From the NCBI GenBank assembly GCA_000004695.1, contig CM000155.2:3232001-3296000 (forward strand): DNA of 64,000 bases. The letters run 5' to 3'. This stretch comes from Dictyostelium discoideum (Eukaryota). The notes below the pieces were generated by a model. That model did not search any database and was not told the DNA's origin. It worked only from the letters and a program-made list of their open reading frames with translations. The position numbers were made by a program, and so were the translations under genes. Below, piece after piece: positions 1,683-50,352 of the stretch (position 1 is its first letter; each line of letters begins with the position of its first letter).

Positions 1683-2520
1683 ATATTAAATATGATTTTT
1701 TTTTAGATCATATAAAATAAAAAAAAGTATATAAAAAAAAAAAAAAAAAAAAAAAAAAACTTTTTGTTTAAACACTAAATGATCATTAGTTTTTTAAATA
1801 TTTATTCTATTAAATAATAAACTGGTTATATACTATCAAATTTTTTTTTTTTAACGATACATAAATAATAAATAACTATAATATCAAATAAAAAAAATTT
1901 AATGATGCATTGGGTAATATCGAAAAAAATTTAAACAAAGATGCATTGAATTGGGAAGAAAAATTAACTATTAGTGATTCAGATAGTAGTGACAGTGATC
2001 CAGATACACCAATACAGGGACTTATACCAGAAAATTAACCAAAAACCACAAAAACAGTTAAACCAGTTGCAAATTAATAAACAAATAAATAAAAAAAAAA
2101 TAAATAAATAAATAAATAAAATAAAAAAAAAAAAAAAAATAAAAAAAATACAAATAACATACTAATAAATATTATTTAACGAAGTTACTATCTCTTCCAC
2201 AAAATATAAACGTAGATTTGAAAATTTCAATGAAAATGATGGTTGCTTAAAAGAGTTAATAGAAAAAGAAATTATAATTCAAAAAAATAGAAAGATTAAT
2301 TTATTGGATATTGAATTCAAACAGTATTTTAAAATACCCTGATAAATAATTAGGATACATAAATACATTTAAGCCTAAGGAAATAAATAGAAGGTAGTTT
2401 GGTCAGTGGATGAAATAATAGAACAAGAAATTAAAAATATTATGACCAATTATAATAAAAAATGATTTTTAAATAAAAAATTAAAATAAACTAACTATTT
2501 AAAGTTTGTATTTTTATTTG

Positions 2521-2621
2521 TAGCTTTTTTTTGAATTGGATAACGCAATTATTAGTTGCTTCTCCTTGAGATGCTAGATCTTATTTTATTTGTAGTTTTT
2601 TACAGATAAAAGAGGGGTTAG

Positions 2622-2630
<9 letters not shown>
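2521..2630 (+). repeat. ~100-bp repeat (copy A) ending in gaggggttagtttac followed by a 36-nt poly-T. A second copy lies upstream of the other tRNA gene (59825-59925) in the same orientation relative to the tRNA.
   Basis: ~85% identity between 2535-2630 and the reverse complement of 59825-59925 (ataacgcaattattagttgctyctccttgagatgctagatct...aaaagaggggttagtttac). Confidence 0.75.
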
Positions 2631-2667
<37 letters not shown>

Positions 2668-2949
2668 GGTTCAAATTTTGAATTGTATTATTACTTTTGA
2701 TTAAAACATCTTTTTTGTCCAAATTTTTTATTATATCATCAGCTTCATGATTGATGTTAATGACATATTTGAATTGTTTTTTTTTTATTTGAGTTTTATC
2801 CACAATTTCACTTATTTTTTGTAGGCATTTGTGTTGCTTAATATTTGTGGTGTTGTTTGTAATTTTCATCTTATTTTCTTTCTATTTTTATTTAACTTAA
2901 CCCAGAATTTTAACTTTTTTAAGTTAATCAGAAAATTTCCTTAAGTTCC

Positions 2950-2982
<33 letters not shown>

Positions 2983-3026
2983 TTTGTAGCCAAATTGATG
3001 TAAATTTTTAAAATTTCATCAAAAAT

Positions 3027-3099
3027 GCCTGGATGGCTCAGTAGGCAGAGCGAGCGGCTGTTAACCGCTAGGTCCATGGTTCGATCCCATGTCTAGGCG
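3027..3099 (+). tRNA. tRNA-Asn (anticodon GTT).
   Basis: Cloverleaf: acceptor GCCTGGA/TCTAGGC, D-arm GCTC...GAGC, anticodon stem AGCGG/CCGCT with loop CTGTTAA, T-arm CATGG-TTCGATC-CCATG, discriminator G. Confidence 0.9.
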
Positions 3100-3132
3100 A
3101 TACTTTTCTATGAGAATAGAATTAGATCGCAG

Positions 3133-3143
3133 GTTCAATTCTA
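3133..3143 (+). promoter_or_regulatory. External B box (gGTTCAATTC), 34 nt downstream of tRNA-Asn.
   Basis: Match to the B-box consensus GGTTCGANTCC outside the tRNA body. Dictyostelium tRNA genes are known to carry such ex-B boxes. Confidence 0.6.
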
Positions 3144-3365
3144 TCATTGGAATGGAAAAAAATATTATTTATTAAATAAAAGTATTTATAATTGCTTATT
3201 TCCTTTAATGGATAAACTGTGATTTATTAATTTTTATAATTAGAAAAAAAAAAAAAAAAAAAGAAAGGTTTTTAAAACAGTTTAAAACTTGTAATTTAAT
3301 AAATTTATTTATTTATTTATTTAATGTTATGATTTCAAATCAAGTAATTAGTAACACTGAAATTA

Positions 3366-4304
3366 CTAATTATAACGATTTGCATGACCATAACCTTTAT
3401 TATGACCAGCAGTAAAAGTTTTTAAAGTATAAATATACTTTTTTAAATGTGAATGATTTGGATATTGTTGTTCAAGTTTAGTTGAATATTTGTCTACTTT
3501 AATAATATATTTATTTAATAGACCAACACAATATTTTAAAGCTAAGTCAATTGAACCAAGTTGAATTGCTCTAACTTTAACAAAGTTTGTTAATAAAATT
3601 TCATTGATTTCCATTTTGAATGAACCACAATCATTGATCATTAAATTACAAAGTTCAAAATATTTAAAGAATTTTTTGAAATTTTTTGATTCTCTAATTT
3701 CATTCTCAACATATAAAGTTGAAGTACAAGAGGAAGCAGTAATTGTCATACCGAAATCACCATGTCTTGAATTGAAATAATCTTCAATGGAAAGTGATGA
3801 ATTTAATGATTTATATTTATTGGTTTTAATGGCACTTCTACTCCAATATTCAAAATCTCTAATTAATAAATCAACAGATTCTTTAACACCAACTCTATAG
3901 TATTCATCAAATAATCTCCAAATTTCACGACCAAATGGATCATGACTCTTACTTGATCTATCCATTAAATTATCCACATAATCCTCTTCATAATTACGTG
4001 ATTCATATATGTAATCATCTAAAATGAAAAGAAAATCCAACAATTTTGAATTTACCATATATTCATCCTTTTCACCCAATGGAAAATTCAAAGCAGCAAT
4101 TTTACCAATTTCATTCTTTTTTACATAATTCACAGCATTTTCATAGTTTTGAAAAAATTGTTTAACATATTCCATTTCTTGATTTTCAAAATCTTTATCA
4201 AATGGACTACTTTTAAAATCCCAAGGAAGAGTATACTTTGGAATTCTAATTTCTTGATCCAAAAATTGATTTTTATCCCAAGTAAATTTTATATCATAAT
4301 CCAT
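3366..4304 (-). CDS. Class I (microbial-type) terpene synthase, 312 aa, single exon.
   Basis: Aspartate-rich motif ILDDYIYE (DDxxD/E). NSE/DTE motif NDCGSFKME ((N,D)Dxx(S,T)xxxE). RY pair near the C-terminus (NRYN). Size and architecture fit Dictyostelium TPS genes. Confidence 0.85.
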   Translation of the reverse strand: MDYDIKFTWDKNQFLDQEIRIPKYTLPWDFKSSPFDKDFENQEMEYVKQFFQNYENAVNYVKKNEIGKIAALNFPLGEKDEYMVNSKLLDFLFILDDYIYESRNYEEDYVDNLMDRSSKSHDPFGREIWRLFDEYYRVGVKESVDLLIRDFEYWSRSAIKTNKYKSLNSSLSIEDYFNSRHGDFGMTITASSCTSTLYVENEIRESKNFKKFFKYFELCNLMINDCGSFKMEINEILLTNFVKVRAIQLGSIDLALKYCVGLLNKYIIKVDKYSTKLEQQYPNHSHLKKYIYTLKTFTAGHNKGYGHANRYN

Positions 4305-5480: not shown

Positions 5481-5587
5481 GTAAGTTTGACCCCCCCCCC
5501 CCTTTTTTTTATTTATTTTTAAATTTTAATTAATAAATCATTATTAACTTTTTCTTTTTTATTTTCTATTAATAATAAAATAAATAG

Positions 5588-9195: not shown

Positions 9196-9987
9196 ATGTC
9201 ACAAAATGAATATGACAAAAATGATTCACTTTTTAATAAATTTTCAAATAAAAATTTAACTATAGAGAATGAAACTCTACTATTTTCAATGATACCATGG
9301 GAAATTGTTAAGAATGGAAATGTTATTGATTTTGGTTGTGGTAATGGATGGTTTTGTAGAGAAATGATTGAAAAAGGTGTAAACCAAATTATTGGTGTTG
9401 ACATTTCTGAAAAATTAATTAAAAAAGCAATAGAATTAAATAAAGATAATAATGAAAAATCAAAATATTATGTCACTGATTTAGATAATTTCCAACTTAA
9501 TGAAACTCCTTTTAATTCATTAATTGGTTCATTTGATTTTGCATTTAGTTCATATTTAACTCATTATTTATCAGATTTAGAATCATTTTTTAAAAAAGTT
9601 TACAATTTATTAAAATCAAATAATAATAATGGTAGTAGTTTTATATTTTTTGCAGAACATCCAATGAGAACTTCAACAAAATGTATTGAAAATAAATTTA
9701 TTAGTCATAAATTTGAAGGTGATGAAAATTCAAAAATGGTTTGGCCAATTTCAAATTATAGTGAAGAAGGTAAAAGAGTTACTAAATGGGCTGGATCAAA
9801 TGGAATTGTTAAATATCATTATACAATTGAAACTTATGTAAACACTTTAATTAAAGTAGGTTTTAAAATTGATTATATAGGTGAATTAAATCTTGTAGAA
9901 AAACAATTACAACTTTGCAATTCTGGTGATATAACAATAGAAGCAAATAGTCCATTTACACTATTTATTAAAGTAATAAAAAATTAA
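9196..9987 (+). CDS. Class I SAM-dependent methyltransferase, paralog 2 (263 aa, no Asn tracts).
   Basis: Same motifs as 6981-7889. Tandem duplicate 2.2 kb downstream. Confidence 0.8.
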   Translation: MSQNEYDKNDSLFNKFSNKNLTIENETLLFSMIPWEIVKNGNVIDFGCGNGWFCREMIEKGVNQIIGVDISEKLIKKAIELNKDNNEKSKYYVTDLDNFQLNETPFNSLIGSFDFAFSSYLTHYLSDLESFFKKVYNLLKSNNNNGSSFIFFAEHPMRTSTKCIENKFISHKFEGDENSKMVWPISNYSEEGKRVTKWAGSNGIVKYHYTIETYVNTLIKVGFKIDYIGELNLVEKQLQLCNSGDITIEANSPFTLFIKVIKN

Positions 9988-10620
9988 TTAAAGAAAGCTT
10001 TAATTTTTTTAAAAAAGTAAATCATTTTTATATTAAAAAAAAAAAATAAAAAAAATAAAAAAAAAAAAATAAAAAAAATAAAAAAAAAAGATTTTTTAAT
10101 CTTTTTTTTTTTTTCACCTATCCTTTTTGACAAATTAACACAGCAATTTCAAAAGTTATGTTTAAAAATTAATTATTTATTTTTTTTTCCCCACCATTTT
10201 AGCTTTTTTTTGATACACACAGAATAATAAAGAAATATTAATAAAAATAAAGAAATAATAATAAAATTCTTTTTTTTTTTTTTTAAAAAATTATTATTTT
10301 ATTAATTACCAATCACGTAGTTTAGTGTGCTCGAAATTGATAAAATTATTATGTTAACAGACACGAAATATGTTCGTTTTACAATTTAAAAAAATAATGC
10401 AGTTTCTGTTTCTCGTTAAAATAATTGTGACCTAAACAAAAATTAAAAAAAAAAAAAATAAAAAAACAATTAAATAAAAAATAAAAATAAAAAATAAAAT
10501 AAAACTGGGATTCAAAAATAAAAGCAAGCTCTAATCTATTATAATTTTTAATTAAATATGTGTTAATCTAATTCTTCAATACACCTCTAAACTTTTCACT
10601 TATATAAAAAAAAAAAAAAA

Positions 10621-21626: not shown

Positions 21627-23171
21627 TTAAAGAATTGTTGGTAAAGAATCGTAACCATTTGTAGCAGGTAAAGTTTCTCTTTTCGAATAATAGGGTTCAA
21701 GTACTACATCTTTAGGGAAATTTCTGAGACGTGGTTCACCTGTTGATACATCGATAGTGAGTTGAAGTATTTTTGTAAATTGAGGACATTCTGAAAGAAA
21801 ATCTGGAAGGGTTTTCTTTGCACCAGCAGTATCATCAGCCTTTACTAAATAATGACGAATACGTTTTTCAGGATCGGGATCATCTACTTTATAGCCAACT
21901 GCGAAATGGCCAGCATGACGTTCACTGAAACGAATTAAAAAGGTGCCTTGCTCTTCATTACGAAGGGCTTCTTCGACACTTTGACGAGAAATGAAACCAT
22001 AGATGAGACCCGATTGCCACATGGAGCAAACGTGACGTTGATAACGTAGTTTTTGTAAACCTTTACCAAACCAAATCCAAAATGAATCAAAACTAGATTG
22101 AGGGATCATTGGTTTACTTCCGAAAAATTGATGATGAATGTACATGAGTTCGTGACGTGATAGGTAACGAGTTGGTTTCATAAAGTCTTGACGAGTTGCA
22201 CGCAAGAAATGTCTTTGAAGTTTATTGGCATAGGAAGCCCAAGGTATTTCATTGTTATTTCCAAAGGAATCTTTCTTTAGGAGAGTACCATCTGATTCTT
22301 CATATTGACATTCATTGGTGATAACGATGAATGGTGAGGTTGGTGGTGATTCAATGTTTACAGCGGTACCACCAACCACTTGAACTTGCATTCCAAATTT
22401 GAGGGTTACTGGATTCTTTCTGGTACCATTTAAAAATTTGAGATGATATTTTGCCAAACGATTGGTTTCATCCATTGATACCACCTCTGTTTCAATGGTT
22501 TTTGGAGATGAAGAAGTCTTTGAGCCTTGTTGATTCTCAACGATCATTGTTGCTCTAACTTTACCGATCATTTGTAACTCTGTACGAGTGCCACAAAGTA
22601 ATTGAACGACTACTGGATCATCTTCCAATGGTTTACACTTTGTAATTACCATTGGGAATGGTTGTTCAATCACTACCAAAGCAGCGATAGTTGGTGGTGG
22701 ATTTTGTGGACGAACTAAAAGTTGTAACTCTTCATGATACAATTCCAATTGAATACTTTGAATGGTGAGTTCATGTAAAAGGAAGATAACATTTCTAATC
22801 TCTGGTGGTGATAAAACAAAGGTTTGGTCAATTTGTTGAAGTGAGGTGATCTCTGCATCAATTTGTTTTTTCAATGTATTTTGTTCATTATCCAACATTT
22901 GGAATGTCTCTTTTTGTGGGTGTGCCAACACTTGTTTTTGTACAATTTTCATCTTATCCAATTGTTCCTTTTGAGCCAAATGTAACTTTAAACATTCATT
23001 AATGATTTGTTGATGTGGTTGTAATACATTTCCATATGGTGTATTTATTAAAAGATGATCTGGTAATGGCAAATTATTATTATTACAATGTTGAATTGAT
23101 GATAATATATTTGGTTCAATTATATCATCTGGTGATCCAATTCCATTTGAGCTATTACTACTATTACTACC

Positions 23172-23203
<32 letters not shown>

Positions 23204-23457
23204 TATTATTGATATGGGTTGGAATTGGATGTAAATGTTGTGGTTCAACTGGTAATTGATGTAAAATTGGTAATTCAATTTGTTGCATTTGTGGTTGTGT
23301 TGGTTGATTTAATTGATTTTGATGATTTAATTGATTTTGATTATTTAATTGATTTTGATTATTTAATTGATTTTGATTATTTAATTGATTTTGGTGATTT
23401 AATTGATTTTGATGATTTTGATGAATTTGTTGGTGTTGTTGGTGTTGTTGTTGTTGG

Positions 23458-23522
<65 letters not shown>

Positions 23523-23870
23523 TTGTTGATGATGTTGTTGTTGTTGTTGTTGTTGTTGTTGCTGTTGTTGTTGTTGTTGTTGTTGTTGTTGCTGTTGTTG
23601 CTGTTGTTGTTGTTGTTGTTGTTGTTGTTGGAATTGGAATTGTTGTTGTTGTAAATGTTGTTGTTCTAATTGTTGTTGTTGAATTTGTGCTTGTTGTGCT
23701 TGAATTTGTGCTTGTTGTTGTTGAATTTGTTGGGCCTGTTGTTGTTGAATTTGTGCTTGATCTATTTGTGGGTTGTTAACTTGTTGAATTGGTTGCAATT
23801 GTTGTTGTAATAATTGCTGTTGTTGAATTTGTGCACCATCAATAGTTTGGAAATATGGATCAATGTTAAC
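21627..23870 (-). CDS. STAT transcription factor, main exon (747 codons). Contains the poly-Gln/His tract, coiled-coil, DNA-binding, SH2 ([15 protein letters not shown]) and C-terminal tail. Assembled protein is about 931 aa. Possibly the STATc-type member.
   Basis: SH2 FLVRES-like GTFLIRFSE and STAT-type linker/DBD similarity. Acceptor aaaaAG|GTTAAC at 23872-23871. The track ORF N-terminus [10 protein letters not shown]... is intron read-through. Confidence 0.85.
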
Positions 23871-24180
23871 CTTTTTTTTTTTTATTTTTTTTGTTTTATT
23901 TTGAAATTTAAAAAAAAAAAGACAAATTAATAATATGAAACAAGAATTTAATTTAAAATAGAAAAATAAAAAAAAATATCCAAGTAAAAATAAAAAAATG
24001 TTTATTAGAAAAAAAAAAAAAACTAATAAAAAAAAAAAATTAATAAAAAAAAAAAAAAAAAAAAAAGAAAAGATATTTTTTTTTTTTTTTTTCAAAAATC
24101 CATTATCATAATCAAAACCCTTTGAAAAAAAAAAATAAAAAAATAAAAAAAAATAAAATAAAATAATGGATGACACTTAC

Positions 24181-26959: not shown

Positions 26960-27059
26960 NNNNNNNNNNNNNNNNNNNNNNNNNNNNNNNNNNNNNNNNN
27001 NNNNNNNNNNNNNNNNNNNNNNNNNNNNNNNNNNNNNNNNNNNNNNNNNNNNNNNNNNN
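26960..27059. other. Assembly gap of 100 N, flanked by a T-homopolymer.
   Basis: A run of n characters. Confidence 1.
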
Positions 27060-27114
27060 TTTTTTTTTTTTTTTTTTTTTTTGTGACTACTTCGCACAAA
27101 CACAACCACAAAAA

Positions 27115-29208
27115 ATGAATGACCAAGATTTATTGTTTTTTAAAGTATTTAGAAATAAATTTATTAATAGGATTTTATTTGAAAAAATCAAACAACCAAA
27201 CAGACAATTATATTATACAACATATAGTTTTTATGATTTCCCTTTAGAATTAGTTATAAAAACACAAAATCAACAAGTTTTTAAAGAGAAATTAAATCTT
27301 TTTAATTTATATAAAAATAAACAAAAATTCATTAATAATAATAAAATTGAAATTAAAAGAGCATACCAATATTCTTTAGATTTTAATATTGAAATATTTG
27401 AATTAATATTAGTATGGAAAGAATTGGAAATTGATTTATTTATTGAATTTTTTAAATTATTTAAAAAAGAAATTGAAAAGGAATTAAAACAATCTTCAAA
27501 AGAAATTATTAAAAATTTACTTGAAAAATCATCAAAAAAAGAATATAATAATATAAATTTAAATATTTTAAATTATTTATTTAAAGAATTTTCAGAAATT
27601 AAAATTTTTTTTATTTTTCAAATTAAAAATCATGCAAAGAGATATACAGTACATCAATCATTTTCAAAATTATTAAATGATTTAAATAAAGAATTAATAA
27701 TTAAATTTGGTGAATATTCAGGTTGTTATAACAACGAAAAAGATGATGATAACAGTGAAGATTTCTTTAAACTGGCAAATAATTATCTTTATGAAATCAT
27801 TTTTAAAGATGATGAAAATGGTCAAAACCAATTTTACTCAAAATTATTATCAATATTTCCAAAAACTGAAAAAACCAATTTACATCACACTATACCACTA
27901 TTTATTAACTTGTTTGAAAAATTAATTCAAAGAAATAATTTCAAATTATTGAAATTAATTTTTTCAAAATTAAATAATATTAATGTATCAGAGAATGTTG
28001 ATGAAATGATCTCAATTTTTAATTTCAAAATTTCAAGTTGTTTTTTTGTTTTAAACACTGAAATCTTTAATACACCAACAACTCAAGATTCTGAAATGAT
28101 GCAATTATTTAGTGCAACACTACAAAAAAAAATATTTAATTCAGTTTTAAGTTTTGGTTTTAAAAAATTTTATATTAATGGTCCAGATTATTATGATTTC
28201 ACCACAACACAATTTTATAAAAATTTTTCAAATTTTCCATCAATATATAGTGGTGATTTAATTTTATCTTCACGTAGTTTTAAATTTAAACAAACATGTT
28301 TAAGATCTTCAACATCAAATAATAATAATAATGAAAAGATTTTAAATAATTGTATGGATATTGAATATTATAAAAGTAATTTTTTTAATGAAAATTTAAA
28401 TTGGTTTGATGTTTATATTGGAAAATTTGGTTTTGATATAAAAAGATTAAAAGAAATCATTGAATTAGGTTATTATGATATGATAAATCATATATTTAAA
28501 AAAGGGTATTATAAAATAATAGATTTTAAAAATAGTAATAAATTATTACATGATTTATTTATTACAATATTATTATCAAGTGATAATTTAAATAATAGTA
28601 GTTTACAATTATTAATTAATTTTATATCACCAATGGTAAATGATATTATAAAATCAAAACAAAGGGAATTCTTTTTCAATGAATCAATACCAATTGATAG
28701 ATTAAAAAGAATTGAATATTTTAAAATTATTCAAAAAATTGAAGGATATCATGAAATGAAATTAAATAATGATATGGAAATATTAAAAAACCCAAATTTA
28801 TATGTTAATAATTCATTTCAAATTAATTATTTAAAGAAAAGATTAAATCAATTTGAACAATCTCAATTTAAAAATTTATTATATTTTAGTTTAAAAAGTA
28901 AGAATTTTAAATTTATTTCAAAGTGTATTTCATTTTTGGTGAAAAACGGTCAAGATAGGTTAATTAATATAATAGATATTTTAAAATTACTTTTATTTTC
29001 AAGTATTGGAAAATTTGAAGGAAATTTAAAGTTTTTCTTTTACATAATTAAAGTTTTCAATTACCAATTACCATTTAAATCAACTAATGATATTGAGAAT
29101 TATGAAAACTTTATTTTACAAGATTTGGATTATGATTATCAATTATTTGATTTAACATTTGGTATAAATGAATTTAATAATTTCAATTTATTTATTACAT
29201 TCCTCTAA
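27115..29208 (+). CDS. Lineage-specific hypothetical protein, tandem paralog 1 (697 aa).
   Basis: Long ORF, ~60% identical to 29758-31887. No recognisable domain. Confidence 0.7.
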   Translation: MNDQDLLFFKVFRNKFINRILFEKIKQPNRQLYYTTYSFYDFPLELVIKTQNQQVFKEKLNLFNLYKNKQKFINNNKIEIKRAYQYSLDFNIEIFELILVWKELEIDLFIEFFKLFKKEIEKELKQSSKEIIKNLLEKSSKKEYNNINLNILNYLFKEFSEIKIFFIFQIKNHAKRYTVHQSFSKLLNDLNKELIIKFGEYSGCYNNEKDDDNSEDFFKLANNYLYEIIFKDDENGQNQFYSKLLSIFPKTEKTNLHHTIPLFINLFEKLIQRNNFKLLKLIFSKLNNINVSENVDEMISIFNFKISSCFFVLNTEIFNTPTTQDSEMMQLFSATLQKKIFNSVLSFGFKKFYINGPDYYDFTTTQFYKNFSNFPSIYSGDLILSSRSFKFKQTCLRSSTSNNNNNEKILNNCMDIEYYKSNFFNENLNWFDVYIGKFGFDIKRLKEIIELGYYDMINHIFKKGYYKIIDFKNSNKLLHDLFITILLSSDNLNNSSLQLLINFISPMVNDIIKSKQREFFFNESIPIDRLKRIEYFKIIQKIEGYHEMKLNNDMEILKNPNLYVNNSFQINYLKKRLNQFEQSQFKNLLYFSLKSKNFKFISKCISFLVKNGQDRLINIIDILKLLLFSSIGKFEGNLKFFFYIIKVFNYQLPFKSTNDIENYENFILQDLDYDYQLFDLTFGINEFNNFNLFITFL

Positions 29209-29522
29209 ATGTTATTAAAGAAACTATTAATAATAAAAAAAAAAAGAAAAATAATAATAATAATAATAATAATCAAGGTATTCAATTTATAATTTCTTCA
29301 ATTGAATTTTATTTTACAATAATTTTTAAAATGAATATTAAACAAATTAATCGTTTATATTATAATGGATTCAAAAGTAAAATAAATGTACACCAACACT
29401 TGCTTCCAACTTATTTTATAAACTATTGTCAATTAGGCACAAAAAATTCAGAATATTTAAAATTTTTTAATCTTTTAGATTTGGTAGATTCCATTAATGA
29501 TAAAAAAAAAGAAACAAATTAA
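29193..29522 (+). other. Out-of-frame continuation of paralog 1. A conserved C-terminal extension (IPLNVI...ISSIEFYF...INRLYYNGFKSK...) reads in the +2 frame relative to the main ORF, the result of a 1-bp indel.
   Basis: Homologous to 31891-32389, downstream of paralog 2. Confidence 0.5.
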
Positions 29523-29560
29523 AAAAAAAAAAAAAACAATTAGATATTTTATTTGGTTAT

Positions 29561-29596
<36 letters not shown>

Positions 29597-29757
29597 CAAG
29601 CCTGGGGGTTTTACGTTTAAGAGGTTGCTCTTTTTTTCTTTTTTTTATTTTTTTACAAATCTAAGACTTAGACAAAAAAAAAGAAAACATAAGAAAAAAA
29701 TTTCGAAAAAAAAAAACAATTGTTTTTAACACACCCACAAAACCACAAAAACAAAAA

Positions 29758-30033
29758 ATGGAAATTGTTTTTAACACACAAAAAATGGATGACCAAGGTT
29801 TATTGTTTTTCAAAGTGTTTAGAAATAAATATATTAATAAGATTTTATTTGAAAAAATCAAACAATCAAATAGACAATTATATTATACAACATATAGTTT
29901 TTATGATTTCCCTTTAGAATTAGTTATAAAAATACAAAATCAACAGGTTTTTAAAGAGAAATTAAATCTTTTTAAATTATTTAAAAATAATATCGAAAGT
30001 TCCAAATTTAATAATAATAATAATGGTTTTATT

Positions 30034-30118
<85 letters not shown>

Positions 30119-31048
30119 TTGAAATTAAAAGAGCATATAGATGTTATATAGATTTTAAAATTGAATTATTTGAATTAATATTAGTATGGAAAGAATTGGA
30201 AATTAATTTATTTATTGAATTTTTTAATTTATTTAAAAAAGAAATTGAAAAGGGATTAAAACAATTTTCAAAAGAGATTTTTAAAAATTTACTTGAAAAA
30301 TCATCAAAAAATGAATATAATGATTTAAATTTAAAAATCATTGATTATTTATTTAAAGAAATGCCACAATTAACATCTAAATTTATTATGGAAATTCATT
30401 ATAAAACAATCGATTCACCAATTGAATCATTTTCAAAATTATTAAATAATTTAAAAAAAGAATCAATAATTGAATATAAAGAATATTTAGGTGGCGATAT
30501 TAAATATTCAAATGGTGATGATTTCTTTAAACTTGCAAATAGTCATCTTTATGAAATCATTTTTAAAGATGATGAAAAGAGTCAAAATCAATTTTACTCA
30601 AAAGTATTATCAAAATTTCCTAAAATTAAAAAATCAATTCCAAATCAAAAATCACCATTTATTAACTTGTTTGAAAAATTAATTCAAAGAAATAATCTCA
30701 AATTGTTGAAATCAATTTTTAAAAAATTAAATAACTTTAATGTGTCAGAGAATGTGGATGAAGTTATGATACCAATTTTTAAATTTAAAATTTCAAGTTA
30801 TTTTCTTATTCCCATAAACACTGAATTATTTAATATTCCAACTACTCAAGATTCTGAAATTATGCAATTATTTAGTGCAATCATACAATCTAAATTACTT
30901 CCAAATAAATCATACCCATTTAAAACAAGTATCACATTAATTATCAATGGTCCAGATTATTATGATTTCATATTATTAAATCATGGTCATAATTCTAGTT
31001 TTAAAATTAAATCAACATGCTTAAGATCTTCAACATCAAATAATAATA

Positions 31049-31109
<61 letters not shown>

Positions 31110-31318
31110 TAACAACAATAATAATGAAAATATTTTAAATAATTATATGGATATTGAATATTATAAAAGTAGTATTTTTAATGAAAATTTAATTTGGTTT
31201 GATGTTTATTTTGAAAAGTTTGGTTTTGGTATAACAAGATTAAAAGATATTATTCAATTAGGTTATAACGAAATGATAAATCATATATTTAAAAAAGGAT
31301 ATTATAAATTTATAGATT

Positions 31319-31379
<61 letters not shown>

Positions 31380-31887
31380 TTTATTATTAGATTTGTTTAT
31401 GACATTATTATTATCAAGTTCACTACCGCTACCACTACCACCACCACTACAATTACTAATTAATTATATATTACCAATGGTAAATGATATTTTTAAATCA
31501 AAACAAAGAGAATTCTTTCTCAACGAATCAATACCAATTGATAGATTAAAAAGAACTGAATATTTTAAAATTATTCAAAGAATTCAAGGATATCATGAAA
31601 TGAAATTAAATAATGATATGGAAATATTAAAAAATTCAAATTTAAATTCTAATAATATTAATAAAAAATTTCAAATTCATAATTTAAAGAAAAGAATAAA
31701 TCAATTTGAAAATAATCATTTTCGTAATTTACTAATTTTCAGTTTAAAAAGTACAAATTTTAAATTAATTTCAAAATCTGTTAAATTAATGAAAAATAGT
31801 AGTGGTGGTGGTAGTGGTGGTGGCAGTGGTGGTAGAGGTAGAGGTAATTATGATAATTTAGTTAATTATATTATTAAATTTAAATAA
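29758..31887 (+). CDS. Lineage-specific hypothetical protein, tandem paralog 2 (709 aa). Carries Asn-tract insertions and a GGS repeat before a cluster of three stops.
   Basis: Long ORF. It ends in TAA TAG TGA immediately after the (GGS)n insertion. Confidence 0.7.
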
Positions 31888-31890
31888 TAG

Positions 31891-32389
31891 TGAAGAGTAT
31901 GAAACAAATTTTAAAAATTTCTTTTATTTAATTAAAGTTTTCAATTATCAATTACCATTTAAATCAACAAAAGATATTAACTTTTTAATTGATATTATTT
32001 TTCAAAAAAGTTTAATTGGAGAATTCCAAATTTTCGATTTATCATTTGGTGTAAATCAATTCAATAATTTCAATTTATTTAATTATATTCCTTTAAAAGT
32101 TATAGATACTTGTACTACCACCACAATTTCATCAATTGAATTTTATTTTAGAGTAATTAAAAAAATTAAAGAATCTGAAATTAATTATTTAAATACTCAT
32201 GGATTCAAAATGAAAATTAATTTATATCAAAATCAAGAATTGGTTGAAAAATATTTTCACATTCATTGTAAACCACAAAATTCACATATTTTAAATTGTT
32301 TACAATGTTTTGGTCTTTTTGATTTCATTGATTATTCAAATCTTACTAGGTGTGATATTCTTTGTGGATTATCTAGTATTAAAATGTAG
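31891..32389 (+). other. Conserved 166-codon C-terminal extension of paralog 2 (EEYETNFKNFFYLIKVFNYQLPFK...CDILCGLSSIKM), in a different frame from the upstream ORF. No plausible intron restores the frame.
   Basis: Homologous to the end of paralog 1 and its out-of-frame tail. Frame analysis of 31840-31910 is given in the findings. Confidence 0.5.
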
Positions 32390-32399
32390 AAAAATAAAT

Positions 32400-32432
<33 letters not shown>

Positions 32433-33603
32433 GGTATTTTATTTTTTTTTTTTTTATTTATTTATTTATTATTATTTTTTTGGTTTTATATTTTTTATAA
32501 AAATAGTCAAATAAATAAATTAAAAATAAAGGGGAAAAATTTAATTTAGATATTTTGTGAAGTTTTGGAAATAAAAAAAAAAAGTTTATACTTTTTTAAT
32601 TTTAAAAATTTCCAAACGTCCCAAAAAAAAAAAAAAAAAAAAAAAAAAGAAACAAAGCAAAACAAAAAAATACTCTTATACAGCAAGAGGTGTGGATAAT
32701 TCGCTCAAATTAGAAATAACCACTCAAAAAAAAAAATAAAAATATAAAAAAATAAAAAAAAATAATAATAATAATCTCCTCAAACCACAATTAAGTATGA
32801 TTTATTTATTTTTTTATTTTTTTTTTTTTATGGGGGTATCATATTTTGTTTCTATTATTAATTATTTTATAAATAATCATTTCTTTAAACTAATTATATT
32901 TATTTCACTATTTTTAATTTCTTAATTTATATTAATAAAAGTGAGAATATATATTTTTAGAAAGTAATACAAATAATTAAATGTATGGTTATAAATTTAT
33001 ATATGTATATATATTAATATATTTATATATATTATGATTTATTCGATCATTCTATTTAAAAAATTATTTTTTTTCAATATCTTATAATAATTTAACACAT
33101 CCTCAAAAATAAAAATAAAAAAAAATAAATTAAAAAATAAAAATAAAAATAGAAAAAAATAAAAAAAATAAAAATAATAATTATACACAGCACCAAAATT
33201 ATTCCCCCCCCATATAATATTATTATTTTTAAAAAAAAAAAAAAAAATAAAATATAATAAATAAAAAAAAAAAAAAAAGGGTTTTTTAAAAAATTAAAAA
33301 AAAAAAAATGAATTAAAATTATGTTTTTTACATTTATATTTATTTAAATGTATATATTTAATATATAGTATTTATTTACTATTATTTTAAATTATTTATT
33401 CTATCTTTTTTTTTTTTTTTTTTCATTTCATTTCATTTCAATAATCACACTTTTTTTTTTTTTTTAATTTTCCTTTTGTAATATTTCCCTTTTTTAAAAA
33501 ATAAATAATTAATAAATTATTCTTTGGGAACATTTCCTTTAATGATAAATTTATAAAATAAATATTTTAAAAAATAAATATAAAAAAACATATACATATA
33601 TAA

Positions 33604-33689: not shown

Positions 33690-34427
33690 ATGAATGAAAA
33701 TTCAATTAGTCAATATTCAGAAATTGATTTAATAAGTGATAATCCATTTAAAAATTATTTTGTAGTTGAAAAATTACTAAATAATAATAATAATAATATT
33801 AACGATACCATTGGTAATAATCACTATTCAAATAATAATAATAATAATAAATTTTTAAATAATAATAATAAAAATAAAATAAATAAAAAACAAATAATAT
33901 TAAAAGTTCAAAAGAAATCAAATAAAGCAATGAAAGAATTAACAGTTATGCAAAAAATTGGATATTATTCAAATCATGTTGTTAATGTTTATGGATATTT
34001 TAATTTAAAAGGATGTGATAGAATGTTAAAACCTAGATTACTCTCTGACAATGATGAGTTGATATTCATGGAATGTGAAGATATGGGACAATATCAAACT
34101 TTAGAAATGATAATTGAACGTCGTAAATGTAAAGGATCATTAGTGATGACAAGATTCATCATGAGAGGTATACTTGCATCTGCTTACTATTTCGAATCAC
34201 ATCAAGTAATTCACCAAACTCTTCACCCAGGTAACATATACATCTTGGAAGATTCCCTAGGAACCGACGATCAATCAGTTGTAAAATTTTCAAATTTAGA
34301 ACACTGTTTATTAATTGGTTCTACAAATTCATCATTATCATCATTATCATCATCAACATCATCATCTTCATCCTCATCATCATCTACAAATTGTAATAAT
34401 AATACCACCGAAAATAATAATAATAAT

Positions 34428-34481
<54 letters not shown>

Positions 34482-34877
34482 TCATTAAATGATAGATTTG
34501 TACTTGGTAAAGATTCAGTATGTTATAGTATTTATAGTGATAGACATCAGAGTAGAAATTTATTTAAAGTTGTAAGTTCAAATACAGTTTCTTTTACAGT
34601 TGGTATTATTTATTTGGAATTATTATTATCAACTATTTATGATCACGTTTTTCCTAATGAAGAGTATATAAATTCATTGAGAGAGATAGTAAGGAATGGG
34701 AAATTGGATATCTATACAAATCAAGCAACAAACACTAAATATTTTAGATTTAATCAAAATCATCAAATTGAAATAACTGATTTAATTAAAGATGATATCT
34801 CATTAATATTAACTTTATTACAAGATTCATCAACTAGACCAACAATAACACAATTTATTATTGATTATTTATTTTAA
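33690..34877 (+). CDS. Protein kinase-like protein, probable pseudokinase (395 aa).
   Basis: Kinase-fold landmarks: ILKV (VAIK), E in helix C, hinge FMECEDMG. HQTLHPGNIYI replaces HRDLKPxN (catalytic Asp to Thr). VVKFSNLEHC replaces DFG. No APE. Confidence 0.6.
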
Positions 34878-39955: not shown

Positions 39956-40269
39956 ACACTTTAGTCATCTCATCATATAAATAATAAGAATTGTAGTAAT
40001 AGAAACTTTTAATAAAATAAAATAAATATAAAAAAATAGTATTTATATATATATTAATGTACAGGAATAGTGAATAACACCATCACCAAAAATATAAATC
40101 AACACAACCTGAATACCATCAGCCGCAACAATAACAAAAGTAATAACCAACACGCAATAAAAAAAGAACCAAAATCAATAGCGGTAGTAGTAATAAAGTT
40201 ATTCAATTTATATATTTATATATATAGTATATAAGTAGTGATTTTCATAATTTTATAAAATAAAATAAA

Positions 40270-41613
40270 ATGACGTCATTACATAAACAAATTATTGAAT
40301 CACATAATAATGATATAACCAAATTGAAATCATCAATGTCAACAAGAGCAGCTGCTAGAAGAAGTGTTTGTTTATCTTCAATGTCTTATACATTAGGTGC
40401 TGATGATGTTACACCAATCACCTCAAATACAACCCCTAGTAATAATAATAATAATAATAATACTACCACCACCATAACTACCACAACTACCACCCCAACC
40501 ATATCACCACTAAAGCAATCAACTACAGGTAGTATTATACCCAAATCAATTTTAGTTACAAAATCAGGCTCAAAGGAGGAACCTATTGTATCATCCTCAA
40601 AATCAAGTAGTAATAGTAGTAGTATCAATAATAACTTTAATAATTTATATTCAGCATCAACATTTAGTAGTAGTACAAAGAAAGTACATGAAAGACCAAG
40701 TATAAATCCAGGTTTTAGAAAACCAAGAGAGGCATTATTAAGTGGTAATAGTGATAGTGGTATTATTAAAAAACCATCTTCATCATCTACTTCTTCTTCT
40801 TCTTCTTCTTCTTCAACTACTAGTAATATAAAAGCACCAATTCAAATTTCACATTCTAGCAATAGTGGTAGTAGTAGTAGTGGTGGTAATAATAATAATA
40901 GTGATGATAATAGTGGCAGCTCTACAATTAAACATACTGCTGCATCATTATCAAAAATGAAGTTATCACCATCGCACACAATTTCTGATTCTCCAAGATC
41001 CTCAACTATGAAATCTAGATCTGTTTCAATTTCAAATGGTAGTTTATTCTCACCAACCAATACTTCTGTAAATAATAGCAATAACAATACATCATCAAAT
41101 ATAAAAACCCCAACCAAATCATCAATATCTGAGAATTTAGATCAAAATACACCACCACCACCATCATCATCATCAACAACAAAAACACCAACTGCAACAA
41201 CAACAACAACAACAACAACAACATCATCATCGTCATCGACATCAACAAATACAACACCTTCTAAATCATCAGTGGATGATGTTTTTGCAAGATTAGCCAA
41301 TGTATCAAAACCTGCAATTAAATCAAGATCATTATCTGTTTCTGCAAGTTTGGCAAGGGTTGAACAATCCCCACCAACTAAAGATAAGGGAGATAAAGAA
41401 TCTTCATCTTCGTCCTCCTCTTCTTCATCTTCATTTTCTAGTAAATTTACAAAAATACTTAGGAGTTCATCAAAAACACCAACACCAACTTCATCCAACA
41501 CTACAGTACAACCCTCAACAACCTCATTATCAGCATCAAAGATATCATCTAGAAAAGATACAAAATCATTATCATCTTTTTCAACTACAACTACTACTAC
41601 TACTTTAAAATCC

Positions 41614-41652
<39 letters not shown>

Positions 41653-42246
41653 TCAAATATAGCATCAAGCTCATCAAGTTCATCAAATAATTTAACAAAC
41701 TTACTCACACAATCACAATCAATTTCGTCAACATCAACATCAACAACAACAACACCAACTTCAACTTCACCAACATTGGCATCATCAATGTCTGTATTAT
41801 CATCACCAACTTCAACCACTACCACCTCCACCTCTACCACCTCCACAACAACAACACCAACCAAATCATCATGTACTATTATAACACCATCGATTGCATT
41901 GAAATTATATATAAACGATTTAACATCAGCAGAACAATCAGAGATTCTGGATTATCCTCAAATCTATTTCACTGGTAATACCAATAAAAAAACAAAATTC
42001 AATTCACAATTACCAAACAATGGTTATGATAATGATATTGGTGAATATAAAGTGGTTGAACGTGATCATATAGCATATCGTTTTGAAATCGTTTCAATAC
42101 TTGGTCAAGGTTCATTCTGTCAAGTAGTAAAAGGTTATGATTATAAAACTGGTGAAATGGTTGCTTTAAAAATTTTACGTAATCAAAAAAGATTTCATAA
42201 TCAAGCTTTAACTGAAATTAAAATTTTAGAATATTTAAAAACAAAT
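40270..42246 (+). CDS. DYRK-family kinase, exon 1 of 3. A 600-aa Ser/Thr-rich N-terminal region precedes kinase subdomains I-IV (GQGSFCQVVKGYD...VALKIL...RFHNQALTEIKILEYLKTN). Donor aat|GTAAGA, phase 0.
   Basis: DYRK2/3-type DH-box and RFHxQA motif. Confidence 0.8.
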
Positions 42247-42299
42247 GTAAGATTTAAAACATATTTATATAAAAAAAAAAAAAAACCTATTATTAATTT

Positions 42300-42335
<36 letters not shown>

Positions 42336-42339
42336 TTAG

Positions 42340-47968: not shown

Positions 47969-48471
47969 ACATCATTAGCTGATATTTTATCAGTATTGGC
48001 AATGGCAAATGGTAATGATGAAAGAGATACACTTAAATATAAATTATTGGGTAGTGGTGAAGCAATTGCAAGTTGGGGACATGAATATGTTAAACATTTG
48101 GCAACAGAGATTGGTGTTGAATATGATATCAAAAAGGAAGAGAATCAATCAGTAGAGGATTTATTAAAATTGGTTGATGAGATTGTACCATTCCAAATGA
48201 CACATAATGCAGAGCCAGAGGCTTGTGATCTCCTATTGGAGGTTGAACAACTCTCAAAGATTTTCCAATACATTGACGAGAATAATTATAGTCGTGTTTG
48301 TCTTTATCTATTCAAATGTTCATATTATGTACCAGGTCCAGATGATATCAACATCTTAAAGGTTTGTGTTGAAATCTATATTAAAATGAAACAATATCCA
48401 GATGCACTCAGAGTTGCTATGAAAATTTCTGATCCTGAATTAATTACTGAAATTTTTAAATTGGTTGAAAA
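47969..48471 (+). CDS. psmD2: Rpn1/PSMD2, exon 2 of 3 (TSLADILSVLAMANG...WGHEYVKHLA...NAEPEACDLLLEVEQ...). Donor aa|GTAAGT, phase 2.
   Basis: Acceptor ttattAG at 47967-47968. Colinear with PSMD2. Confidence 0.85.
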
Positions 48472-48560
48472 GTAAGTATTATTTTTTTAAAAAATAAAAA
48501 ATAATAATTAATAAATATATTTATATATATTAACTTTTTTATTTTTATTTTTTAAAAAAG

Positions 48561-50352
48561 TAATAAATCAATTTTACAACAATTAGGATTTTTAGTTGCA
48601 AGACAAAAAATTGTACCAGATAATTTTAATTATGATTCAATTAGTGATATTATAAATAATTCAAAATTAAGTGAATACTTTATGAATTTAGCAACTGATT
48701 TAGATATTAGAGAACCAAAATTACCAGAGGAAATTTTCCAATCTCATTTAGATTCAACCAGTGCAATTGCAGATTCAGCAAGAATGAATTTAGCTTCATC
48801 ATTTGTAAATGCCTTTGTTAATGCTGGTTTCGGTAAAGATAAATTGATGACCGCTGAAGAAGATACAAAATGGTGGTTCAAGAATAGAGAATTGGGTATC
48901 CTTTCAACTGTTGCTTCAACTGGTATGGTTGTACTTTGGGATATTGATGGTGGTTTAACAAAGATTGATAAATTTTTATACTCTCAAGAGAAACATTGTA
49001 GCAATGGTGCTTTGATGGCTATTGGTATGTTAACAAGTGGTATTAGAAGTGAAATGGATCCAGCACTCTCTCTATTGGCCGAACATATCAATAGTTCAAA
49101 CACTGGTACTCGTATTTCTGCCATCTTTGGTTTGGGTTTAGCCTATGCCGGCACACAAAGACAAGATCTCATGAGCTTACTCTCACCATGTCTCGACGAT
49201 GATAAGGAGAAGATGGAATTTATTGGTATCGTTGGTTTAGCTTTGGGTTTAATTTTCATTGGTTCTTGTGATCCTGAATTATCAACCCTCTTTGTACAAA
49301 CTCTTATTCAACGTGGTACCGCCGCAAGCGAATCTCATGCTCGTTTCCTTCATTTGGGTTTAGGTTTACTTTACCTCGGTAAACAAGATGCCGCCGAGTT
49401 GGCCTTGGAAACATTGAAAGCCATCGAAGGTAAAGGTGGTGAGTATGCCCGTCTTACAGTTGAAGCTTGCGCTTACGCAGGTACTGGTAATGTATTGAAG
49501 GTTCAAAATATGCTCCATTTCTGTAGTGATGGCCAAGAAAATCCACATCATGGTTTAGCCGTACTCTCAATCGCTTTGATTGCAATGGGTGAAGAGTTGG
49601 GTTCAGATATGTGTCTCAGAATGTTTGATCATCTCCTTCAAAAGGGTAATGTACACATTAAACGTGCTATCCCATTGGCATTGGGTTTATTATCACCATC
49701 AAATCCACGTATTGCCATTATGGATATTCTTAGTAAACTTTCACATGACAATGATCCAGAAGTTGCTCAAGGTGCCATCCTTTCATTGGGTTTGATTGGT
49801 GCTGGTACAAATAATGCTCGTATTGGTGGTATGTTAAGAGCTTTAGCCGTTTTCTATGGTAAAGATGTCCATTTATTCTTTGTTCGTATCGCTCAAGGTT
49901 TACTTCATTTAGGTAAGGGTACCATGACTATCAATCCATATCATAGTGATCGTACTTTAATGTCACCAGTGGCAGTGGGTGGTTTATTAGCTCTCTTACA
50001 TGCTGGTCTCGACATTAAAAATATCCTCTCAACTCAATCTCACTATTTATTCTTTTCAATCGTTTGTAGTATGTATCCACGTATGTTAATGACCCTCGAT
50101 GAGGATCTTAAACCATTACCAGTAAGCGTTCGTGTTGGTCAATCCGTTGATATCGTTGGTTTAGCAGGAAAACCAAAAACAATCACTGGTTTCCAAACTC
50201 ATACAACTCCAGTACTCTTGGGTTATAACGAACGTGCTGAACTCGCCACTGATGATTACATTCCACTCACAAACATCTTAGAAGGTATTGTAATTCTTAA
50301 ACCAAATCCAAATGCATCTGTAACTTCACCATTAGCTTCAAAAAAAAATTAA
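48561..50352 (+). CDS. psmD2: Rpn1/PSMD2, exon 3 of 3 (PC repeats, ...SARMNLASSFVNAFVNAGFG...YHSDR...TITGFQTHTTPVLL...). Total protein is about 893 aa.
   Basis: Acceptor aaaaAG at 48559-48560, phase 2 (AA+T = Asn). High identity to PSMD2 throughout. Confidence 0.9.

Follow-up and report, generated by a model that had tools for sequence, protein, structure and literature searches.

Two tandemly arranged genes in the 64,000-nucleotide stretch of Dictyostelium discoideum AX4 chromosome 6 analyzed here (the window) raise the question of why each is followed, beyond its stop codon and in a different frame, by what looks like the continuation of its own protein. Copy 1 is DDB_G0293782 (UniProt Q54BD3), and the AX4 protein record for this gene (P0001) corresponds to copy 1 of the window, except for one stretch that has been spliced out. 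The two open reading frames (ORFs) were found where the original prediction had placed them and with the similarity of ≈60% that it reported: copy 1 encodes 697 aa and the longest ORF of copy 2 (29758–31887) encodes 709 aa, with 61% identity over 695 aligned columns. A family profile search of the 64-kb window revealed no family members besides these two copies.

The homologous tails were likewise present past both stop codons (Table 1). At the local base composition, the chance of the two frames staying open this long is P ≈ 6e-6 and 3e-8. Each tail is homologous to the other tail and also to the in-frame part of the other copy (tblastn: 54% over 79 aa, E = 4e-19; 43% over 74 aa, E = 5e-11), and they align to positions 691–772 (copy 1) and 613–768 (copy 2) of the family profile. 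Independent loss of the C-terminal part in both copies, sequencing error near an assembly gap and an unusual recoding event had been proposed as explanations.

Table 1. Features of the tandem locus, in window coordinates.
Feature	Position	Strand	Remarks
Assembly gap, 100 N	26960..27059	.	Directly 5' of copy 1; unrelated to the lesions
Copy 1 (DDB_G0293782), truncated ORF, 697 aa	27115..29208	+	Ends at a premature TAA; ORF scan and homologue comparison
Probably spurious 116-nt "intron" in the AX4 reference model (product of 763 aa)	29162..29277	+	P0001 lacks NEFNNFNLF.YIPLNVIKE...NNNQG
59-nt "intron" of the ACTFIT model KAM9952488.1 (782-aa product)	29162..29220	+	From GT..AG enumeration
Copy 1 lesion, 1-bp deletion	29193..29194	+	Junction AATTTATTT/ATTAC; orthologues TTTGATTAC, paralogue TTTAATTAT
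Copy 1 tail, out of frame, 108 codons + stop, open	29196..29522	+	-1 frame
Copy 2, truncated ORF, 700 aa from the homologous ATG	29785..31887	+	Ends at TAA-TAG-TGA
Probably spurious 94-nt "intron" of copy 2 in the ACTFIT model (835 aa; span of 2602 nt)	31844..31937 or 31802..31895	+	Two GT..AG candidates
Copy 2 lesion, 11-bp deletion	31864..31865	+	Orthologue has ATATCTCTGAT; placement ambiguous by 2 nt, AT microhomology
Copy 2 tail, out of frame, 175 codons + stop, open	31862..32389	+	+1 frame

The two genes belong to a small orphan protein family that is known only from dictyostelids, with an ancestral form of ≈800–850 aa that is predicted to be all-helical and has no known domain. Eighteen representatives were found among 1.84 billion proteins, and the 10 that were looked up all came from dictyostelids. 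No Pfam match was obtained for the intact 798-aa orthologue of copy 1 (P0002), the intact 851-aa orthologue of copy 2, P0003, P0004 or the closer family representatives, and weak ankyrin matches appeared in a single distant member, from Polysphondylium violaceum. In distant members, the match to the profile ends at about position 695; the extreme tail therefore varies within the family. An AlphaFold2 model of the intact orthologue, made from a five-sequence alignment, had a mean pLDDT of 41.9 and a pTM of 0.26, which is too poor for a fold search. We found no paper that mentions DDB_G0293782. The protein collection held no exact match to the window ORFs, and homologue searches of it, which were hampered by poly-Asn words (4, 3 and 1 matches) and by the absence from the collection of several proteins present in the assemblies, returned no AX4 protein record for copy 2. 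This missing record hints at annotation as a pseudogene, although it is only suggestive.

The ancestral arrangement was apparent from close relatives. In the ACTFIR assembly, labeled D. discoideum but divergent, each copy is one ORF, 798 aa long in copy 1 and 851 aa in copy 2. In D. dimigraforme, for whose assembly no source paper was found in the literature, the tandem pair is also intact, with 1056 and 813 aa. The tail is thus contained in one uninterrupted single-exon ORF of 798–1056 aa in all four of these genes. Copy 1 is intact as well in ACTFIW, a second divergent "D. discoideum" assembly (830 aa), and every orthologue outside the AX4 genotype reads through the two AX4 lesion sites without a change of frame. 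These alignments show that the ancestral state was one ORF and that the AX4 lesions are derived and unlike each other. Copy 2 of ACTFIW carries lesions of its own: 75% of the way along the ORF there is a nonsense codon, and at 91% the frame is shifted by the expansion of an A7 run to A8; being from a single assembly and at homopolymer boundaries, these could be assembly errors.

Alignment with the orthologues showed that the copy 1 lesion is exactly the 1-bp deletion that had been described: AX4 lacks one G after position 29193, reading TTT-ATTAC where the orthologues have TTTGATTAC, and the downstream sequence is consequently read in the -1 frame. The lesion falls at residue 697 of the 798 in the intact orthologue, or 87% of the ORF. 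The copy 1 ORF is 92% identical to residues 1–696 of this orthologue and the tail is 82% identical to its residues 693–797, with the frame switch confirmed by tblastn. The deletion would cause translation to stop at 697 aa instead of ≈800.

In copy 2, the original prediction had blamed the insertion of a Gly/Ser (GGS)n run, but this run is also present in copy 2 of both divergent "D. discoideum" assemblies, including the intact gene of ACTFIR and that of ACTFIW, which is interrupted elsewhere. The frame is instead broken ≈20 nt past the run by an 11-bp deletion, which puts the downstream reading in the +1 frame. The 11–12 bp missing from AX4 copy 2 are kept in copy 1 and in both divergent assemblies. 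The lesion corresponds to residue 672 of 851 in the intact orthologue (79% of the ORF), and the tail is 91% identical to residues 684–849, with the frame switch again confirmed by tblastn. Translation would stop at ≈700 aa instead of ≈870, and the AT microhomology flanking the deletion at ≈31864 would be in line with replication slippage.

We considered whether the reference assembly might be at fault, with both gaps (1 bp and 11 bp) being artefacts and the true AX4 genome having uninterrupted ORFs. Resequenced AX4-derived lines share ≈1900 known differences from the AX4 reference, which the authors of the resequencing study ascribed to reference errors, to differences between the ancestor clone and the reference, or to mutations during cell growth (PMC3466296), and the assembly gap ends only 55 nt upstream of copy 1. 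GCA_054883475.1 (L004/L005), an assembly of an AX4-like strain that is free of gaps and derives from different data, nevertheless contains both deletion junctions base for base (at 5506 for copy 1 and 8173 for copy 2 of L004), with the coding sequence otherwise identical to that of the window. It fills the 100-N gap with ≈915 bp of A/T-rich sequence (L004 2467–3380). The differences from the window are found only at the edges of homopolymers and microsatellites, except in the 2.5 kb upstream of the gap, where 14 further substitutions occur, so that mismatches are denser there, as might be expected from a reference error. The suggestion of a homopolymer-associated error close to the gap does not fit the lesions themselves, which lie 2.1 and 4.8 kb away from it and do not change the length of a homopolymer; nor would a base-calling error drop 11 bp. 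Sequencing error is therefore very unlikely, since an independent gap-free assembly carries both deletions exactly, and this assembly-to-assembly comparison places the lesions in the genome itself. Because GCA_054883475.1 has essentially the same genotype as AX4, the comparison rules out a Sanger base-calling error and speaks for this genotype, not for the spread of the lesions in natural D. discoideum; a search for further D. discoideum strains through exact matches to the 395-aa and 1351-aa genes returned just this AX4-like assembly.

Public gene models bridge the lesions with short introns, and splicing around each lesion might yield proteins that stay in frame and retain the far C-terminal part, as if intronization had rescued the frameshift. 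The earlier statement that the frame is not restored by any intron of plausible size was formally wrong, as many GT..AG intervals of 52–130 nt restore it, among them the 59- and 116-nt intervals in copy 1 and intervals of 52–94 nt in copy 2. The sequence here is ≈85% A+T, as in Dictyostelium introns, and the tails still have the appearance of constrained sequence. However, GT and AG dinucleotides are so numerous that frame-restoring pairs should arise by chance alone; we counted 43 in copy 1 and 153 in copy 2, and the existence of such a pair thus does not discriminate. Furthermore, the boundaries differ among the three published models: the 116-, 59- and 94-nt "introns" are mutually inconsistent, although they come from two annotations of the same sequence, and each cuts out codons that are coding and conserved in all of the intact orthologues, which are modeled as single exons without these "introns". 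A paper that re-annotated the transcriptome does not list DDB_G0293782 in its supplements. We consider real introns highly improbable; the annotated ones are probably gene-prediction artefacts. They resemble the spurious frameshift-bridging introns that gene predictors produce elsewhere, in having three different lengths in two annotations, in dropping conserved codons and in being absent from the models of intact orthologues.

Recoding would require programmed ribosomal frameshifting, or a related event, in the -1 direction in copy 1 and in the +1 direction at AAA-TAA in copy 2. The open, conserved tails are what such a mechanism would produce, and the zero frame of copy 2 does end in AAA TAA, where a +1 shift enters the tail frame. 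The AAA-TAA sequence resembles the +1 frameshift motif of Euplotes. At 85% A+T, however, AAATAA is trivially common, and this ubiquitous sequence was the only candidate slippery site in copy 2, while the 25-nt overlap in copy 1 (29181–29205) contains no X_XXY_YYZ heptamer. The downstream RNA is no better folded than shuffled sequences (minimum free energies of -4.4 and -5.5 kcal/mol; z = +0.5 and +1.5), so that no stimulatory structure was evident. At both positions, a single frame runs through in the orthologues and in the ancestral state, and neither a shift site nor a two-frame architecture is conserved in them. Searching the literature turned up no account of cellular frameshifting in Dictyostelium. 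Compared to genes with established programmed frameshifting (antizyme, the Euplotes AAA-TAA genes and retroelement gag-pol), the locus shares the long, conserved ORF that lies in another frame right after the stop codon and, in copy 2, the AAA-TAA junction, but differs in the lack of conservation of the shift, of a heptamer in copy 1 and of a stimulatory structure, and in the opposite directions of the two shifts. Because the lesions differ in kind and in position, would demand shifts in opposite directions at sites that are not homologous, and are accompanied by neither a slippery sequence nor an RNA structure, recoding is exceedingly unlikely, and we find nothing that speaks for this part of the original prediction.

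Independent, recent C-terminal loss in both copies is the explanation that these results support: deletions of 1 and 11 bp, at non-homologous sites, that are absent from the intact orthologues. In copy 1, dN/dS was 0.37 in the tail and 0.33 upstream of the lesion; in copy 2, the values were 0.30 and 0.48. None of the 283 tail codons is a stop codon, although 158 single-base changes could create one, and all indels in the tails are multiples of three. Pooled counts rejected neutral evolution along the AX4 branch after the split only weakly (P ≈ 0.03), but rejected ω = 1 (P = 0.0015). Relaxed constraint or decay past the lesion was thus not detected in either tail. Judged from the sequences, the lesions are recent, since dN/dS in the tails is the same as in the gene bodies (≈0.3–0.4) and stop codons are lacking.

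A tail dN/dS as low as that of the bodies would be equally expected if the tails were still translated. One can envisage that the C-terminal parts are still made, either through introns newly recruited in parallel in both paralogues or through a ribosomal shift, backward in copy 1 (-1) and forward at the AAA-TAA of copy 2 (+1), or, in a milder version, that the three C-terminal losses were adaptive and not neutral decay; we regard these scenarios as very unlikely.

We conclude with good confidence that the locus consists of two tandem single-exon paralogues, each of which has, in the AX4 lineage, independently lost bases from its last quarter in a small, real and recent deletion that shifts the frame. 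They are young truncated alleles or pseudogenes, and represent ordinary gene decay with no new mechanism. The former C-terminal coding sequence would persist as an out-of-frame relic that is still open because there has been too little time for decay, and we infer that the tails are untranslated. The locus matches known young duplicated-gene pseudogenes and truncating alleles in tandem families in having derived, lineage-specific lesions absent from close relatives, with a third independent lesion set in another lineage, microhomology at the 11-bp deletion and a relic ORF that is still open. It differs in that the first lesions are all in the 3' quarter (at 87%, 79% and 75% of the ORF in the three independent cases, a 3' bias that was assessed post hoc) and the gene bodies are intact, so that these may be shortened, working genes. 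Given where the first lesions all fall, the shortened proteins may retain their function, and the C-terminal part may be a dispensable region of a birth-and-death family.

These results have a practical consequence for curation. The models of DDB_G0293782 (Q54BD3) and its counterparts in the newer annotation hold introns that are probably invented and should be re-modeled as frameshift-truncated genes or pseudogenes, and copy 2 presents the same case. The pair is a clean example of how young frameshifts can be masked by ORF-maximizing gene predictors in A/T-rich genomes. The repeated loss of the C-terminal part in this small dictyostelid-specific family also provides a minor data point on gene birth and death.

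Copies 1 and 2 lie on an extremely A/T-rich stretch of D. discoideum AX4 chromosome 6 (GC 14-35% in 2-kb windows), and over 695 aligned columns they share 61% identity. The best database match of copy 1 is the AX4 protein DDB_G0293782, which is identical to the window translation, one excised stretch aside. No AX4 protein record with copy 2 was found in the protein collection searched, itself incomplete, which fits annotation of copy 2 as a pseudogene. The tails are homologous to one another, and each also matches C-terminal sequence read in frame in the other copy (E = 4e-19 and 5e-11); the chance of frames that long staying open at this composition is ~6e-6 for copy 1 and ~3e-8 for copy 2. 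The original prediction of tandem paralogues with homologous out-of-frame tails was thus confirmed. Immediately 5′ of copy 2 there is a 16-nt direct repeat, ATTGTTTTTAACACAC, at 29719-29734 and 29763-29778. The in-frame upstream ATG at 29758 arises from the second repeat copy and lengthens the mechanical ORF by nine codons; the start in the orthologues and in the ACTFIT model is the ATG equivalent to 29785.

Positions of the two genes, their tails, the annotated introns and other features in the window
Feature	Position	Strand	Remarks
Copy 1 ORF	27115-29208	+	697 aa
Copy 1 tail	29196-29522	+	-1 frame; 108 open codons past stop
Copy 2 ORF	29758-31887	+	Homologous start codon at 29785
Copy 2 tail	31862-32389	+	+1 frame; 175 open codons past TAA-TAG-TGA
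AX4 model intron, copy 1	29162-29277	+	116 nt; 763-aa product
ACTFIT model intron, copy 1 (identical sequence)	29162-29220	+	59 nt; 782 aa; KAM9952488.1
ACTFIT model, copy 2			Implied 94-nt intron
3-bp length differences, AX4 vs AX4-like assembly	30035-30037, 29593-29595, 32623-32625		(AAT)n or poly-A runs; only length differences in region
Higher-GC block	22001-24000		Overlaps long minus-strand ORF 21627-24176
Higher-GC block	40001-42000		Overlaps ORF 40270-42339
Higher-GC block	48001-50000		

Comparison with intact orthologues by tblastn placed exactly one frame switch in each AX4 gene: at residue 697 of the 798-aa orthologue for copy 1, and at residue 672 of the 851-aa orthologue for copy 2. 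Base-level alignment bore out the 1-bp deletion proposed for copy 1, which lacks a single G (AX4, AATTTATTT-ATTACATT; orthologues, AATTTATTTGATTACATT; paralogue, ...TTTAATTAT...). Copy 2 lacks 11 bp (AX4, TTAGTTA-----------ATTATATT; orthologue, TTAGTTAATATCTCTGATATTATATT), and the corresponding 12 bp are retained in copy 1. An AT dinucleotide makes the boundaries of this deletion ambiguous; microhomology of this kind is what replication slippage would leave. The (GGS)n insertion originally held responsible was rejected as the lesion, since the Gly/Ser/Arg run just 5′ of the deletion also occurs in copy 2 of the divergent "D. discoideum" assemblies ACTFIW and ACTFIR, in the latter of which copy 2 is intact.

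Related assemblies were found through exact-protein look-ups. In ACTFIR (GCA_054859385.1, labelled D. discoideum), each gene is a single exon with an uninterrupted ORF (798 and 851 aa). In D. dimigraforme the genes are likewise paired in tandem, and their ORFs (1056 and 813 aa) run without interruption through the C-terminal region; copy 1 is intact (830 aa) in ACTFIW (GCA_054859355.1). Over the syntenic region (window 17848-42152), DNA identity to the window is just ~88-92% for ACTFIR and ACTFIW alike, and over most of that region the two are ~93% identical to each other. Mean nucleotide diversity in D. discoideum is reported to be ~0.003, and morphologically cryptic, highly divergent strains have been mentioned (preprint 10.1101/2025.10.22.684067). 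Since this divergence is far beyond ~0.3%, the two assemblies behave as close sister lineages rather than conspecific strains and, despite their label, look like cryptic sister species. Copy 2 of ACTFIW carries independent interruptions of its own: an AAA-to-TAA nonsense change (T4A3 to T5A2) at 9971-9973 of its sequence L003, 75% into the ORF, and an A7-to-A8 frameshift at about 10385-10392 (91%). Its annotation divides the copy into separate genes of 671 and 131 aa. With each lesion at a homopolymer boundary and only one assembly showing them, both could be assembly errors.

The possibility that the AX4 lesions are themselves sequencing errors near the gap was addressed with a gap-free assembly, ACTFIT (GCA_054883475.1), to which a neighbouring single-exon gene (395 aa, 33690-34877) pointed. 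Where the window has 100 N (26960-27059), ACTFIT has ~915 bp of intergenic sequence, A/T-rich and full of homopolymers (positions 2467-3380 of its sequence L004). Across 27060-33000, three base substitutions and three 3-bp differences in the length of A or AAT runs are all that separate it from the window; over a further 18 kb there are four substitutions, every one at a homopolymer edge. Given this near-identity, ACTFIT represents an independent sequencing and assembly of one and the same genotype. Both junctions, AATTTATTTATTACATTCC and TTAGTTAATTATATTATTAA, are exact in ACTFIT, and this assembly-level comparison speaks against sequencing error. In the 2.5 kb 5′ of the gap, there are 14 differences between window and ACTFIT, far above the level elsewhere and several at homopolymer or short-run edges, suggesting lower reference quality at the contig end. 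One of the 3-bp changes drops a single Asn from the copy 2 poly-Asn tract.

In codon alignments of the repaired AX4 genes with the ACTFIR orthologues, dN/dS was 0.33 upstream and 0.37 downstream of the lesion in copy 1, and 0.48 and 0.30 in copy 2, with dS from 0.06 to 0.16. The pooled tails have 26 nonsynonymous and 16 synonymous differences, compatible with ω ~0.35; ω = 1 was rejected (P = 0.0015), and ~0.68, the value predicted for an AX4 branch evolving neutrally since the split, was rejected weakly (P about 0.03). No stop codon occurs in the tails, though 158 distinct single-base changes would make one, and every indel against the orthologues has a length divisible by three. Judged from these alignments, the lesions would be young relative to the ACTFIR divergence. 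However, the same dN/dS pattern would also, and equally, be expected of tails that are still translated, and introns and recoding were examined for this reason.

The original prediction that no intron of plausible size restores the frame does not hold: within 600 nt, 43 GT..AG intervals in copy 1 and 153 in copy 2 (including 52 and 94 nt) formally do so, and public annotations use some of them. However, the annotated introns are mutually inconsistent, each cuts out codons kept in the intact orthologues (e.g., NEFNNFNLFDYIPLNVIKE), and those orthologues are modelled as single exons. Thus, the introns are best seen as ORF-maximising prediction artefacts, and real splicing around the lesions is unlikely. 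Programmed frameshifting, also raised originally, is more improbable still. It would take a -1 shift in copy 1, whose 25-nt overlap (29181-29205) contains no X_XXY_YYZ heptamer, and a +1 shift inside 31862-31887 in copy 2. The AAA-TAA end of copy 2 resembles a Euplotes-type site, but this hexamer is commonplace at 85% A+T. RNA 3′ of both sites folds no better than shuffled sequence, and no published case of cellular programmed frameshifting in Dictyostelium emerged from a literature search. The main objection is that the sites are non-homologous, require opposite shifts and are ordinary in-frame codons in every relative.

With distinct deletions, intact orthologues and open, constrained tails, the proposal that both copies independently and recently lost the C-terminal region stands. 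The two paralogues probably carry ordinary frameshift truncations, real in the AX4 genotype and hidden by spurious introns in public annotations; the practical worth lies in correcting the gene models.

Among 1.84 billion proteins, a family profile search picked out only 18 cluster representatives. The 10 looked up are all dictyostelid (D. discoideum complex, D. citrinum, D. firmibasis, D. dimigraforme and Polysphondylium violaceum) and all "hypothetical". No Pfam domain was found in the family proteins searched, and the AlphaFold model is all-helical, with unusable confidence (pLDDT 42). Distant members align to the profile just to about position 695, roughly the copy 1 cut point, indicating that the extreme tail is variable within the family. 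The three independent first lesions fall at 87%, 79% and 75% of the ORF (AX4 copies 1 and 2, and ACTFIW copy 2); multiplying the tail fractions gives 0.007, a post hoc statistic computed once the data had been seen. This suggests that the first three quarters of the proteins are still under selection and the C-terminal quarter is expendable. Given the 3′ clustering, "truncated but possibly functional allele" and "pseudogene" are equally good labels.

Nucleotide identity between the paralogues (27115-29522 vs 29785-32389) falls from 94% over the first 150 bp to ~66-74% over the last 600 bp, with a single block down to 49%; between the ACTFIR paralogues, residues 1-66 are 92% identical and the remainder 56%. 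The high 5′ identity could reflect gene conversion or a strongly constrained N-terminal motif. Elsewhere in the window, three 2-kb blocks have a GC content (0.31-0.35) markedly above the rest, with strong GC skew in the first (+0.32) and second (-0.40).
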